A program made the position numbers and the translations under genes. The notes under the pieces were generated by a model that was not told the DNA's origin, searched no databases, and saw nothing but the letters and a program-made list of their open reading frames with translations. From the NCBI GenBank assembly GCA_035545835.1, contig DASZXO010000022.1, positions 1,092-65,091 on the forward strand: 64,000 nucleotides of DNA, in the 5' to 3' direction. Positions 1 to 4,139 of the stretch are shown here, piece by piece. The number at the start of each line of letters is the position of its first letter. Position 1 is the first letter of the stretch. Source of the DNA: Lacunisphaera sp. (GTDB taxonomy: Bacteria; Verrucomicrobiota; Verrucomicrobiia; Opitutales; Opitutaceae).

Positions 1-63
1 GTATCGTTTGCCTCGTGCCTCACGTTCGCGGTGTGGAGGCTGAATCCCGGGCTGCTTTCATAG
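1..63 (+). CDS. 3' end of an upstream cassette gene (partial)
   Basis: Frame 1 is open from base 1 (VSFASCLTFAVWRLNPGLLS) to TAG at 61-63, 18 nt before the first attC-like site. Confidence 0.35.
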   Translation, partial: VSFASCLTFAVWRLNPGLLS

Positions 64-81
64 ATTGGCCATGTCGCAAAT

Positions 82-180
82 GCCGAACCTGGCGCGAGAG
101 CCAACAGCTACGCTTGTCACGGATCATGCTGGCACACGCTCCGAGCCAAGCACACACGTGGCTCATCGCTGACGTCAGGC
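82..180 (+). mobile_element. attC-like site 1
   Basis: R'' GCCGAAC (82-88); L''/L'-like pair GAGCCAAC / GTGGCTC with one extrahelical base; R' GTCAGGC (174-180). Confidence 0.7.
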
Positions 181-187
181 TAAGATC

Positions 188-571
188 GTGGCCAACCATC
201 CGCTAAACTTGGCATTCAGGTTCCTGCTGGAGTGCGGCGCGGTCTGGACCTTTGCCCGATTCGGAATGTCGCTTGGCGAGGGAGCCGCGCGCTACGGCTG
301 GGCTTGTCTGCTGGCGCTCGGTGCCATGCTGATTTGGGGCGTGTTTCGCATGCCGAATGACGGGGGACGGCCGGTTGTTCCGGTGTCGGGGCGCGTGCGC
401 CTGGTGCTCGAGTTCACGATTTTTGCGTTTGCGACCGGGGCGCTCTTTCGACTCGGTGAGCCGGGACCGGCCTGGCTTCTGGTCGGGGCGGTCGCGGTGC
501 ACTATTCGCTCTCGTATGACCGGGTTGGAAGAATGTTACATGCAAACGGTGCGGCACGGAAAAAGACCTGA
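188..571 (+). CDS. YrdB family (DUF2568) small membrane protein
   Basis: NLAFRFLLE N-terminus, WGVFRMPND, RLVLE; four hydrophobic segments. Confidence 0.8.
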   Translation: MANHPLNLAFRFLLECGAVWTFARFGMSLGEGAARYGWACLLALGAMLIWGVFRMPNDGGRPVVPVSGRVRLVLEFTIFAFATGALFRLGEPGPAWLLVGAVAVHYSLSYDRVGRMLHANGAARKKT

Positions 572-613
572 CCAGGCGCCAGCCATGGTCGGGGCTCAGC
601 GTCAACGCCGGGC
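566..613 (+). mobile_element. Degenerate, shortened attC-like site 2
   Basis: R''-like ACCTGAC contains the yrdB stop; followed by CAGGCGCCAGCCA resembling site 1; R'-like GCCGGGC at 607-613. Only 48 nt long. Confidence 0.4.
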
Positions 614-616
614 AAA

Positions 617-1024
617 ATGAGCCAGTTGTTTCGCTTCCCCAATTCCGTCAGGCGCTCGCCCGCTGTCCAAGAATGGATGCACTGGGAGAAGGGCGAGCGG
701 GGAAGGATCGCGCAGCATTGGTTCGAGGTGATTCGGGCGTGCGGGGACGATGTTCGGGAGGTGCTGCACGACGGCCATCCGACCGCGTGCGTCGGCGAGG
801 CGGCGTTTGCCTACGTCGACACCTTCAAGGCGCACGTGAACCTTGGGTTCTTTTGCGGGGCCGGGTTACCCGATCCGAAGAGGTTGCTGGAAGGCAGCGG
901 CAAGCTCATGCGTCACGTCAAGATCAGGCCGGGATCGGCTCTCGATGCCATTGCATTGTCGGATTTGATCAGCGCGGCCTATGCCGATATGCGTGCTCGC
1001 GTGCGGGAAGAGAAAAATGCCTGA
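617..1024 (+). CDS. DUF1801 domain protein
   Basis: HPTACVGEAAFAYVDTFKAHVNLGFFCGAGLPDPKRLLEGSGKLMRHVKI is typical of DUF1801/YdhG-like proteins. Confidence 0.85.
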   Translation: MSQLFRFPNSVRRSPAVQEWMHWEKGERGRIAQHWFEVIRACGDDVREVLHDGHPTACVGEAAFAYVDTFKAHVNLGFFCGAGLPDPKRLLEGSGKLMRHVKIRPGSALDAIALSDLISAAYADMRARVREEKNA

Positions 1025-1159
1025 CCAGCCCCAGAGACCACGCACGGGAGGTGGCCGCAGGGCGCAGGGCCCGGCGCATGGGCCGTTTCCCTCGTTCCCC
1101 GGTGGCCGCGCTGCGCCGGCAAAGGCTTGTGTCCGCCGTCCGGACCTGACGTGTTCGGG
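1019..1159 (+). mobile_element. attC-like site 3
   Basis: R''-like GCCTGAC contains the DUF1801 stop; R'-like GTTCGGG at 1153-1159, preceded by CTGACGT as in sites 1 and 4. Confidence 0.5.
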
Positions 1160-1177
1160 ACCCATCCAGCGTCGCTG

Positions 1178-1564
1178 ATGACGAACATCGAAATAGTGCG
1201 GGCCGTGTATGCCTCCGTGCGCGAATCGGACTATGACGCGTTTCGTAGGTTGTGCGCGCCAGACGTCATCTGGACTCAGAACAAAGGGTTTCCGCAGGGC
1301 GGCGTTCGCGTGGGGGCCGAAGCGGTCATCGATGGAGTCTTCCGGCGCTTTGCGCGGGAGTGGACGAGCTGGCGGTATGAGCTGGAGCAGGTGCTGGAGT
1401 CGGGCAACCAAGTGGTGGCGCTGGGCGCGTATCATGGCGTCCATGCGCAGACGAACAAGCGAATGAAGGCTGATGCCGCGCACGTGTTTCGGCTGGCCGA
1501 CGGGAAGGTCGTGGCGTTCCGGCAATTCGCGGACACAAAGGCCGTTTGCGATGCGATGCAGTGA
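1178..1564 (+). CDS. NTF2/SnoaL-like protein
   Basis: APDVIWTQNKGFPQGG and HVFRLADGKVVAFRQFADT. Start moved to ATG 1178, downstream of attC-like site 3. Confidence 0.85.
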   Translation: MTNIEIVRAVYASVRESDYDAFRRLCAPDVIWTQNKGFPQGGVRVGAEAVIDGVFRRFAREWTSWRYELEQVLESGNQVVALGAYHGVHAQTNKRMKADAAHVFRLADGKVVAFRQFADTKAVCDAMQ

Positions 1565-1567
1565 CAA

Positions 1568-1657
1568 GCCGAACGCCAGGGCCGGCGCCGGCGTCCGTCA
1601 CGCCGGCGGCAGAGCCGCCGCGGCGGCCGTGGGTGCGGACCAACCTTGACGTTCGGC
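1568..1657 (+). mobile_element. attC-like site 4
   Basis: R'' GCCGAAC (1568-1574) is the exact reverse complement of R' GTTCGGC (1651-1657); internal imperfect palindrome; 90 nt. Confidence 0.75.
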
Positions 1658-1660
1658 ACG

Positions 1661-2137
1661 ATGGAAGAGCGGGTGTCACTCCGTCCGGTTGCCACTGAAG
1701 ATCTCCCGATCTTCTTCGCGCATCAGCTCGATCCGGAGGCCGCCCGCCTCGCCGCCTTTCCGTCGCGGGATCGCGAGGCGTTCTTTGCCCATTGGACCAC
1801 CCACATCCTCGGCAACCCCGCGGCCGTCAGCCGCGCCGTTCTCGCGGGCGACCGGGTCGCCGGCAACATCGGCGCATGGTCCGAGGCCGGATCCAGCGGC
1901 CGGTACATAGGCTATTGGATCGGTCGTGAGTTTTGGGGCCGGGGCATCGCGTCGGCGGCGCTGTCGCAGTTCCTGCGCCTGGAATCGACGCGACCACTTC
2001 GGGCGCGCGTCGCCCGGCACAATCCCGGCTCGATTCGCGTGCTCGAGAAAGCGGGATTCGCCCGCGTGGGCGACGATGCCTTTGCCCGGCCGAGCGGCGT
2101 CCAGGTGGAAGAGTTCGTCTATCTTCTCACCGCTTGA
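1661..2137 (+). CDS. GNAT N-acetyltransferase, RimJ/RimL type
   Basis: IGYWIGREFWGRGIAS acetyl-CoA motif; NPGSIRVLEKAGF. ATG at 1661. Confidence 0.9.
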   Translation: MEERVSLRPVATEDLPIFFAHQLDPEAARLAAFPSRDREAFFAHWTTHILGNPAAVSRAVLAGDRVAGNIGAWSEAGSSGRYIGYWIGREFWGRGIASAALSQFLRLESTRPLRARVARHNPGSIRVLEKAGFARVGDDAFARPSGVQVEEFVYLLTA

Positions 2138-2279
2138 TCCCAGCCCCGGGCGGGAAGCCGCGATCGTTGCGCGCCAGGGCGCGATCCTCGCGGCCGGGCT
2201 CCGGGCGGCCCGGCCGGCTTTTGATTGTGCGCTCGCGCCGGCGGGGCGGATGTGCGACACTCCAAGCCAAAGGATTACC

Positions 2280-2552: not shown

Positions 2553-2716
2553 GAAGTCCGCAGGTGGGCTTGCTGTCGGAGCGGCTTGACGCCGCGATCG
2601 GCTCGTTTGGCGACGGCACAGACCCGCTTCAACGCCCGCTGTCTGAGGCAGCCCGCACGGAGCAAGGGACCAGGTTGCAGGTCCGAACTTCGGATTCAGG
2701 GCATGGATCCAACCTG

Positions 2717-2768
2717 GTGGAGGGCCGGCCTCCCGGCCGGCCGCGGTCGGGCAGGAGCCCGACCCTCC
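2717..2768 (+). repeat. REPIN-like family B, copy 1 (GTGG-AGGGCCGGCCTCCCGGCC doublet)
   Basis: Inverted doublet; near-identical copy in reverse orientation at 11571-11624. Confidence 0.75.
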
Positions 2769-2855
2769 GGTCGGACGCGCATGGGATACAATGGCGTTTC
2801 CAGGCCTTCAGCCAACGCGCATGGAGCCCCGCCCGGAGTCCGGGCCCTGCTTGTT

Positions 2856-4139
2856 CTACTGCTTGTAGACCTTGCCGGCCTTCATGACGAAGCTGACCTT
2901 CGTCATCAGGCTGATGTCGGCGAGCGGGTCGCCCGGCACCGCGACGAGGTCGGCCAGCTTGCCCTTTTCGACCGAGCCGAACTGGTCGTCTTTCCCGATC
3001 AGCATGGCACCGTTGATCGTGCCCATCTGGATGGCCTTCATCGGCGGCACGCCGGCCTCGACAAGGTAAACGAACTCCCTGGCGTTCTCGCCGTGCGGCG
3101 CCACGCCCTGGTCGGTGCCGAGCGCCATCTTCACGCCGGCGCGGTAGGCGCGGCCGGCGGTGGCCTGGATGAGCGGCCCGATCGCGGCGGCCTTGGCGCG
3201 CACGACCTCGGGGAAGTAGCCATCGATCTTCGCCTTGTCGGCGACAAAGCGCCCGGCGCTGATGGTGGGCACGAACCACGTGCCGTGCTCCTTCATGAGC
3301 GCGATGTCCTCGTCGTTCATGTAGGTGCCGTGCTCGATGGAGTCGACGCCGCCGAGCACGGCGCGGCGGATCGCCTCGGCGCCATGCGCGTGCGCGGCGA
3401 CCTTCAGGCCGTATTCGTGGGCGGTCGTGACCACGGCGCGGATCTCATCGTCGTCGAGCTGCGGGTTGTCGCCGCTGCTCTCGAGGCTCAGCACGCCGCC
3501 GGAGGGCATGATCTTGATGAGGTCGACGCCGTGCTTGAAATGCTCGCGCACGACCCGGCGCGCATCGTCGGGACCGTTGATCACGCTCGGGGTGGGGATG
3601 CGGTCCTGGATCTCGTAGTTGAGGCCGGTTGTGGGGTCGGCGTGGCCGCCCGTGCTGCCGATCGGCGTGCCGACGGCGAAGACCCGCGGGCCCTCGACCA
3701 GGCCCTCGGCAATCGCCTTGCGCAGGGCGACGTTGATGTAATCGTCGGCGCCGAGGTCGCGCACGGTGGTGAACCCGGCCATCAGCGTGCGGCGGGCATA
3801 GACGACGGAGCGGTAGGCATAATCCGCCGGATTCAGGTAGAAGCGCTCGGTGTAGGATTTCGGCGACTGCTGGTCGGTGAGGTGGACGTGGCAGTCGATC
3901 AAGCCGGGCAGCACGGTGGCGTCCTTGAGCTCGATCACCGCGTCGCCAACGGCGGGTGCGGTGTAGCCATCCTCGATGGCGGCGATGCGCTCGCCGTCTA
4001 GGACAATGGTAACAGTTTTCCGGGGGGCGTCGGCGCGGCCATCGATGAGCGCACCGGCGTGGATCAGGGTCCTGGCATCGGCAAGGCTGACCGCCAGCAG
4101 CGCGGCGCCCGCGAGAAGTAAGCGGGGACTTATGGACAT
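2856..4139 (-). CDS. Secreted metal-dependent amidohydrolase (Xaa-Pro dipeptidase-like)
   Basis: Signal peptide; PGLIDCHVH, LIKIM, AAHAHG, IEHG and GTD metal-binding motifs. Confidence 0.9.
   Translation of the reverse strand: MSISPRLLLAGAALLAVSLADARTLIHAGALIDGRADAPRKTVTIVLDGERIAAIEDGYTAPAVGDAVIELKDATVLPGLIDCHVHLTDQQSPKSYTERFYLNPADYAYRSVVYARRTLMAGFTTVRDLGADDYINVALRKAIAEGLVEGPRVFAVGTPIGSTGGHADPTTGLNYEIQDRIPTPSVINGPDDARRVVREHFKHGVDLIKIMPSGGVLSLESSGDNPQLDDDEIRAVVTTAHEYGLKVAAHAHGAEAIRRAVLGGVDSIEHGTYMNDEDIALMKEHGTWFVPTISAGRFVADKAKIDGYFPEVVRAKAAAIGPLIQATAGRAYRAGVKMALGTDQGVAPHGENAREFVYLVEAGVPPMKAIQMGTINGAMLIGKDDQFGSVEKGKLADLVAVPGDPLADISLMTKVSFVMKAGKVYKQ

Follow-up and report, generated by a model that had tools for sequence, protein, structure and literature searches.

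It was asked whether the left end of a 64,000-nt stretch of a Lacunisphaera sp. genome (C22:1092–65091, + strand; the whole stretch is hereafter called the window) holds an array of integron cassettes and, if so, whether these cassettes can still move. The locus comprises window positions 1–2137 and about 460 nt to their left on contig C22. It carries five small open reading frames (ORFs), all on the + strand, encoding TspO, DUF2568, DUF1801, SnoaL_2 and GNAT proteins, and separated by four spacers (sites 1–4). An original prediction had described these spacers as decaying, partly non-canonical attC sites of an array of genuine cassettes, and this was supported by the homology of the spacers to attC sites, the patchy distribution of the genes and the presence of attCs beside GNAT and DUF1801 homologues in relatives. 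Taken together, the data make it very probable that the locus is an old, largely immobilised cassette array of Lacunisphaera/Oleiharenicola-type Opitutaceae with no integrase adjacent to it. It resembles a CALIN, i.e., a cluster of attC sites lacking an integron integrase in the definition of IntegronFinder (Cury et al. 2016, PMC4889954), and the element is of a known kind, not a new one.

A covariance model of attC sites (R1) was built from 12 attCs of the arrays on contig C49 of the same genome and in the relative G007, with the R and L stems set explicitly. The search of integrase-flanking DNA in about 20 relatives with R1 gave 112 attC sites of 25–78 bits, from which a second model (R2) was constructed. 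Across the 4 Mb genome, R1 matched at E ≤ 1 five sites on C49, three on C17, one on C33 and site 1 of the window; R1 was considered specific because nothing else was matched at this level. No match to Rfam was found in the window or in the true integron on C49, and this negative result is uninformative since Rfam contains no attC family.

Site 1, located between the TspO and DUF2568 genes, was the best preserved of the four spacers. It scored 35.0 bits with R1 and 37.8 bits with R2, with E-values of 2.8e-4 in the 4 Mb genome, 2.8e-7 in 4 kb (R1) and 1.8e-7 in 6.8 kb (R2). Window positions 78–175 showed 79% identity to G007:C45:14487–14584, the attC of the first cassette beside intI in that genome, and the limits of site 1 were defined by this match. 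Its R' box reads GTCAGGC where the G007 attC has GTTCGGC. On the bottom strand the L stem and the hairpin form, and the R stem does not. The variant R' box also makes a perfect 8-bp palindrome, TGACGTCA (window 170–177), across the old crossover point just 5' of the DUF2568 gene.

Sites 2 and 4 gave the next best covariance matches after site 1 in 4–6.8 kb. Both reached 12.2 bits with R1 (E = 0.068 and 0.07, respectively), and with R2 they scored 16.6 bits (E = 0.013 in 6.8 kb) and 10.3 bits (E = 0.36). The covariance check proposed with the original prediction thus returned, with models built for the genus, one clear match at 82–180 and two borderline ones at 566–613 and 1568–1657. In the alignment of site 2, the R'' box and the CAGGCGCC spacer were kept and followed directly by sequence matching roughly the final 38 nt of a 103-nt attC, which indicates an internal deletion of about 55 nt; no attC-type fold was found on its bottom strand. 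The 5' half of site 3 was homologous to a long attC family (about 131–136 nt) over its first 60 nt and around the L' box, its 3' half being degenerate, and the whole spacer folded worse than its own shuffles (z = +1.85). Site 4, which aligned to a 99-nt attC family and is 80% GC, was the sole site of the four to close the R stem on the bottom strand (11-bp closing stem, z = −2.4), and its GCCGAAC/GTTCGGC boxes are the second most common pair in the genus. Four palindromes had been predicted; that of site 4 and part of that of site 1 were recovered, whereas neither site 2 nor site 3 folds into a hairpin.

The statistical weight of these similarities was assessed by aligning each spacer to the 112 real attCs, with shuffles and 150 natural segments per length from the rest of the window as nulls. 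Site 1 scored 110 (shuffle mean 22.9, z = 20.2), site 2 scored 41 (20.4, z = 7.0), site 3 scored 56 (22.0 ± 3.4, z = 9.9; best partner L041:13466–13599) and site 4 scored 63 (23.0, z = 9.8). The maxima of the natural controls were 32, 40 and 35, and every one of the four sites scored higher. In addition, 8.08 million genome positions were scanned with a 25-nt position weight matrix of attC 3' halves. The hits ending at 180, 613 (matrix score 10.6) and 1657, together with one upstream of the TspO gene (C22:631–655), were the top four in 4.5 kb, ranked 8, 56, 101 and 9 in the genome, and sat 3–18 nt ahead of successive start codons. The nine best hits genome-wide all belonged to attC clusters and were followed by a gap in score; two of them were on C22 (site 1 and C22:631–655). 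The corresponding 5'-half matrix singled out site 1 alone; a one-base gap hides the first half of site 3 from it. Half-site profiles run in nhmmer picked up the 3' half of site 1 and that of the site upstream of TspO, and scored the short 5' halves erratically; they were replaced by the matrices and alignments. On these sequence comparisons all four spacers are judged to derive from attC sites.

The same comparisons bear on a rival explanation, in which ordinary hairpins between genes, terminators or repetitive extragenic palindromic (REP)-type repeats make up the spacers and the heptamers arose by chance in a 68% GC genome. Taken alone, the heptamers are no more than chance would give (13 copies of CCTGACC in the window vs 9.9 expected), and 6/7 cross-matches turn up often when boxes are paired at random. 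Site 1, however, is homologous over its full length to an attC of a real integron, and for this site the explanation is contradicted. Sites 2–4 reach only 10–17 bits and unrelated hairpin repeats lie nearby (2718–2768); even so, the four spacers, and not the control spacer, exceeded every shuffle and natural control when compared with real attCs, their 3' halves stand at the canonical distance from start codons, and homologous genes in relatives adjoin strong attCs. Such an origin has hardly any probability left.

The coordinates of the ORFs and spacers are collected in Table 1.

Table 1. Features of the proposed cassette array and its right border (window coordinates unless stated otherwise)
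Feature	Position	Strand	Details
TspO/MBR gene, 3' end, first visible cassette ORF	1–63 (full gene C22:669–1154; stop 61–63)	+	Pfam PF03073, E 4.4e-42
attC site 1, 99 nt, best preserved	82–180	+	R'' GCCGAAC 82–88, L'' AGCCAAC, L' GTGGCTC, R' GTCAGGC 174–180
DUF2568 (YrdB-like) membrane protein, 127 aa, cassette ORF	188–571	+	PF10823, E 2e-12
attC site 2 remnant, 48 nt	566–613	+	R'' ACCTGAC 566–572; internally deleted; 3' half ending with R' GCCGGGC 607–613
DUF1801 protein, 135 aa, cassette ORF	617–1024	+	PF08818, E 1.5e-10
attC site 3 remnant, 141 nt	1019–1159	+	R'' GCCTGAC 1019–1025; R' GTTCGGG 1153–1159 (alternative GTCCGGA 1138–1144)
SnoaL_2/NTF2-like protein, 128 aa, cassette ORF	1178–1564	+	PF12680, E 1.5e-18
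attC site 4, 90 nt	1568–1657	+	R'' GCCGAAC 1568–1574 and R' GTTCGGC 1651–1657, perfectly complementary; L boxes degenerate
GNAT acetyltransferase, 158 aa, last cassette ORF	1661–2137	+	PF13302, E 3.4e-18
Terminator-like GC hairpin with T-tract, closing the co-oriented gene run	2191–2226	+	10-pair stem (9 GC), then GCTTTTGATT

The layout is that of integron cassettes, with one short ORF per cassette, all ORFs co-oriented and an attC just 3' of each of them except GNAT. The R' box ends 3–18 nt ahead of the start codon of each cassette ORF, and the R'' box overlaps or closely trails each stop codon; site 1 starts 19 nt past the TspO stop. The heptamers named in the original prediction (GTCAGGC, ACCTGAC, GTTCGGG and GCCGAAC) were all found in place, and so were the two stop codons said to lie within sites, the TGA of DUF2568 (569–571) inside ACCTGAC and the TGA of DUF1801 (1022–1024) inside GCCTGAC. 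The description of the boxes had to be amended at two points: the R'' box of site 1 had not been named, and the R' box of site 2 is more likely GCCGGGC than GTCAACG. A collapsed attC after the GNAT gene, at about 2131–2174, was also considered and was supported neither by the covariance model nor by the alignment. Downstream of the hairpin that follows GNAT (2191–2216), an AsnC-type gene and a conserved amidohydrolase gene (2856–4139) are located on the opposite strand. Nearby lies a GC-rich double-hairpin repeat, GGAGGGCCGGCC...GGCCGGCC..GGTCGGGC...GCCCGACCCTCC (window 2649–2845, core 2718–2768), which occurs on at least 8 other contigs of the same genome; its 51-nt core is present in many places in congeners with 82–98% identity and in both orientations. 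This repeat looks like a REP- or miniature inverted-repeat transposable element (MITE)-type sequence unrelated to attC.

On its left side the array is cut. C22 continues for 1091 nt to the left of the window and then ends in a repeat: C22:1–629 is 97% identical to C76:1–630, the sequence is present in two copies, and the first base of the two contigs is the same one in the repeat. The further site that the original prediction had suggested looking for upstream was found as a fifth half-site, the attC 3' half at C22:631–655, which begins two bases past the end of the repeat and stops 13 nt ahead of the GTG start codon of TspO. As the half-site abuts the repeat end, the repeat is taken to have cut the attC ahead of TspO and to have caused the contig break. 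The array once extended further to the left, and the repeat is probably a mobile element inserted into it. The ORF in the repeat (3' end, C22:1–420) had no Pfam match and was not called a transposase. An L'' box at first assigned upstream of TspO proved wrong, the stretch in question belonging to the repeat common to C22 and C76.

The distribution of the genes was examined in 65 genomes of the genus. DUF2568 was present in this genome only (1/65), SnoaL in three and DUF1801 in seven, on unrelated contigs. None of these genes, nor GNAT, was syntenic with the amidohydrolase gene, which is itself conserved at 73–75% identity. Gene order was not conserved, the genes being scattered or absent, i.e., accessory and variably placed among relatives. 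GNAT homologues in G054, G001, G065, G064 and G037 had an attC of 31–62 bits directly upstream, the copy in G054 being flanked on both sides. In three genomes (the present one, G010 and G054) GTTCGGC stands 3–4 nt ahead of the start codon of GNAT, in one of them within a 62-bit attC. Homologues of DUF1801 in G076 and G045 were located near strong attCs. TspO of the array is divergent from the usual TspO of the genus, with 56% identity at most.

Several observations weigh against reading the whole run as an array. Both attC models are genus-specific and were made for this analysis. When two attCs within 4 kb were sought with these models, site 1 passed clearly, site 2 had an E-value of 0.013, site 4 one of 0.07–0.36 and site 3 none, as it matched neither R1 nor R2. 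With a strict model threshold a single site passes, so that a strict two-site rule would make the locus one attC plus remnants; because of the decay of the sites, membership in the strict sense is borderline. The spacer after GNAT (2138–2279) showed no attC homology (alignment score 26 vs shuffle mean 22.9, z = 0.8). No attC was found at the TspO homologues in relatives, so the cassette status of TspO rests on the two sites that flank it here. GNAT is present in 31 of the 65 genomes, half of the genus, and its more distant homologues lie in a conserved non-cassette context. TIGR02249, the integron integrase model, had no match on C22, of which only 1091 nt are visible to the left, and an integrase further upstream is possible.

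Part of this evidence would suit a single stray cassette, with only TspO and site 1 derived from an integron and the four genes to the right forming an ordinary accessory operon with attC-resembling spacers. It is true that site 1 and the half-site before TspO are the only unambiguous ones, that GNAT is widespread and that no attC lies behind it; yet sites 2–4 show significant attC homology, GTTCGGC precedes the GNAT start in three genomes and once belongs to a strong attC, DUF1801 and GNAT homologues occupy cassette positions elsewhere, and DUF2568 and SnoaL hardly occur outside this genome. A stray cassette is accordingly quite improbable, and the multi-cassette array is preferred.

A bona fide integrase was found elsewhere in the genome. 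The product of C49:20971–21885 scored 369.6 bits with TIGR02249 (cut-off 265) and is the only full integron integrase of the genome; across the genus, integrases above the cut-off were detected in 33 of 61 sampled genomes. The C49 gene is adjoined by five low-GC cassettes whose attCs have R'' boxes of the GCCGAAC type and R' boxes of the GTTCGGC type, as those bounding site 4. No complete integron, with intI, attI and Pc next to the array, was found on C22. The R1 search of the genome gave two more attC clusters. One of these clusters, C17:13674–15074, is a second integrase-less array, low in GC, with three attCs of 53–61 bits and GATCGGC as the first boundary; it begins behind core genes, has the orientation of the C22 array and is cut off by the end of its contig. 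The other, C33:8456–8529, is a lone attC of 52 bits. In the C49 integron (L007:3429–5829), three cassette ORFs were tested and none had a Pfam match. The two ORFs past its last attC, the second of which encodes a GNAT protein, have a GC content at third codon positions (GC3) of 0.86 and 0.77 and follow a stop embedded in CCTGACCTGAC, where no supported attC was found. Decayed tails behind live arrays were also sought in 11 relatives; two weak 3'-half hits were obtained and the live arrays end abruptly. Since almost no weak half-sites lie beyond live arrays, a worn array is not the usual integron tail in the genus.

The pairing of boxes and the crossover triplets bear on whether the array is still mobile. 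It had been predicted that the R' box before a gene matches the R'' box after the same gene better than that of its own site. The principle holds in the 112-site set, in which the two boxes bounding a cassette matched at 7/7 positions in 70 of 92 cassettes (76%) and at 6/7 in 11, and R' and R'' of one site matched at 7/7 in only 20 of the 112 sites. In the window array the cassette-wise values are 6/7, 5/7 and 6/7, and the 6/7 matches on which the prediction had relied are not diagnostic, as randomly drawn pairs of real R' and R'' boxes of the genus reached at least 6/7 in 46% of draws.

The core triplets (R''/R') are AAC/GTC in site 1, GAC/GCC in site 2, GAC/GTT in site 3 and AAC/GTT in site 4, the last being the only site with the conserved pair. 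In live sites of the genus the triplets are AAC or ATC (R'') and GTT or GAT (R') in 104–109 of 112 cases. Among the R' boxes of the 112 integrase-linked sites GTC was absent and GAT made up 29%; among the R'' boxes GAC was found once, at L039:13661–13725 in G009 (R'' GCCTGAC, R' GCCAGGC). That site is the most distal one found in the fetched stretch of a long array of 26 sites, and its AAC-to-GAC and GTT-to-GCC changes are the same pair as in window sites 2 and 3, a parallel that suggests a recurrent decay path at array ends.

Two crossover types travel with the cassettes of the genus, GTT/AAC in 55 and GAT/ATC in 26 (about 30%), with five discordant between the types, and the triplets are mixed within single sites (20 GTT/ATC and 15 GAT/AAC). 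Because the core is concordant per cassette yet mixed within sites, GTT and GAT are both handled by the same integrases. The GAT/ATC type was found in arrays L024 (G007), L039 (G009), L030, L033, L035, L037, L043 and others, and in the genome studied here at C17:13640–13700. The GTT triplet has been called absolutely conserved in characterised integrons; in experiments with IntI1, GAT with its complement equalled or surpassed GTT in recombination, which fell 150-fold when the two partners both had GTC; a GTC attC was not detectably cleaved in vitro, yet paired with wild-type attI it recombined as efficiently as the wild type (Frumerie et al. 2010, PMC2811028). The use of GAT/ATC in the genus fits these mutant data.

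The original prediction had left the unusual cores to either a tolerant integrase or drift. All core changes in the window array go from AT to GC, AAC to GAC preserving the stop codon (TAA to TGA). With GTC absent from the 112 sites, with the IntI1 data and with changes of this direction in a 68% GC genome, the GAC, GTC and GCC cores are read as drift, presumably GC-driven and following the loss of recombination, and this is the favoured explanation. The best argument against it is the DUF1801 copy in G002, bounded by an exact GTCAGGC/GCCTGAC pair that is 7/7 complementary; its chance origin was roughly estimated at about one in three. It has little probability that GAC/GTC is a third functional crossover type beside GTT and GAT, recombined by Opitutaceae integrases. 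If it were, this array, for all its high GC, would remain a reservoir open to mobilisation, and which triplet is 'conserved' would depend on the lineage.

An array that is still active, either as the distal part of a living one (e.g., that on C17) or as a CALIN excisable in trans by the C49 integrase, with GAC/GTC as a functional third core, is considered unlikely, though less so than the alternatives above. An apparently intact IntI is encoded in the genome and the C17 array runs off its contig in the matching orientation, but the array on C22 is interrupted by the repeat element. Site 1 scores only slightly under the weakest integrase-linked sites and site 4 combines perfect R boxes with a closing stem, while sites 2 and 3 cannot form a hairpin. 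The G002 pair, the second core in about 30% of the cassettes of the genus and the wild-type recombination of a GTC attC with attI would make a further core plausible; against them stand the lack of GTC in all 112 R' boxes, the single GAC at the far end of an array, and the 150-fold drop and lack of in vitro cleavage reported for GTC. Finally, cassette-wise pairing is imperfect where three quarters of live cassettes pair fully, and GC3 is well above that of live cassettes.

GC3 of the five genes is 0.71–0.77 (DUF2568 0.71, SnoaL 0.77), compared with 0.51–0.61 in the C49 cassettes and 0.89–0.91 in adjacent core genes. It is possible that their codon composition moved part way toward that of the host, but the intermediate values could also reflect the composition of the donor instead of amelioration. 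Under the preferred reading of an immobilised array, five promoterless-style genes would each have been captured as a cassette by IntI-mediated attC × attI or attC × attC recombination, each spacer being the remainder of the attC that arrived with the upstream gene. Once selection for recombination was relaxed, erosion of the sites would have taken three routes: AT-to-GC changes in the R boxes (AAC to GAC, keeping the TGA stop, and GTT to GTC or GCC), L boxes that no longer pair, and internal deletion of the hairpin, as in site 2. The insertion of the repeated element into the attC ahead of TspO would have truncated the array, and the five genes now probably form one transcription unit ending at the 2191–2226 hairpin. 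This order of events and the loss of mobility are read from the present sequence. Two attC-like sites with most or all of the hairpin gone, only 32 and 45 nt long, were also noticed at L019:2908–2939 (G010) and L021:3851–3895 (G001). The G010 site, which is similar to site 2, has a dihydroorotase-like gene on one side and the GNAT homologue on the other. It may be that attCs often die by deletion of the hairpin.

The locus thus offers a clear case of what would become of cassettes once movement stops: the genes stay, their codon usage drifts toward that of the host, and the recombination sites are worn away by GC pressure or collapse through deletions. Such arrays are probably under-counted by standard attC models, which bears on the integron-derived share of genomes. 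The comparison set assembled here, in which the genus uses two natural crossover triplets, GTT and GAT, provides a baseline for judging which variants represent decay.

Integrons have been recorded in Verrucomicrobia, and integrase loss, rearrangement, insertion sequence activity and secondary-site insertion have been listed as possible origins of CALINs (PMC4889954). The C22 array is like a CALIN in its co-oriented small ORFs between attC-type sites, in having no integrase match on C22 and an IntI elsewhere in the genome, as in about half of published CALINs, and in the repeated, possibly mobile element at its edge, insertion sequences being a named route to CALINs (PMC4889954). Unlike a CALIN, it has one well-preserved site, the others being remnants below the threshold, including one with an internal deletion; from a standard run one would probably get one attC or none here, and the genes are partly adjusted to the GC of the host. 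With the sedentary chromosomal integrons of the genus (e.g., G007, G009 and C49), it shares the attC family (R'' of the GCCGAAC type, CCAG spacer, L'' AGCCAAC, L' GTGGCTGA, AAC-GTTCGGC), similar cassette sizes and one ORF per cassette. It differs from them in the lack of an adjacent intI or attI, in its lower bit scores (10–38 bits vs 40–78 bits for most integrase-linked sites) and higher GC3, in the imperfect cassette-wise R'/R'' pairing and in GAC, GTC and GCC cores not seen in live arrays. The IntI1 triplet mutants (PMC2811028) were laboratory constructs tested with the class 1 integrase, whereas the variants described here are natural ones of Verrucomicrobiota; nevertheless, the natural variants match those tested, with GAT tolerated or even improved and GTC poor if present in both partners and not cleaved in vitro.

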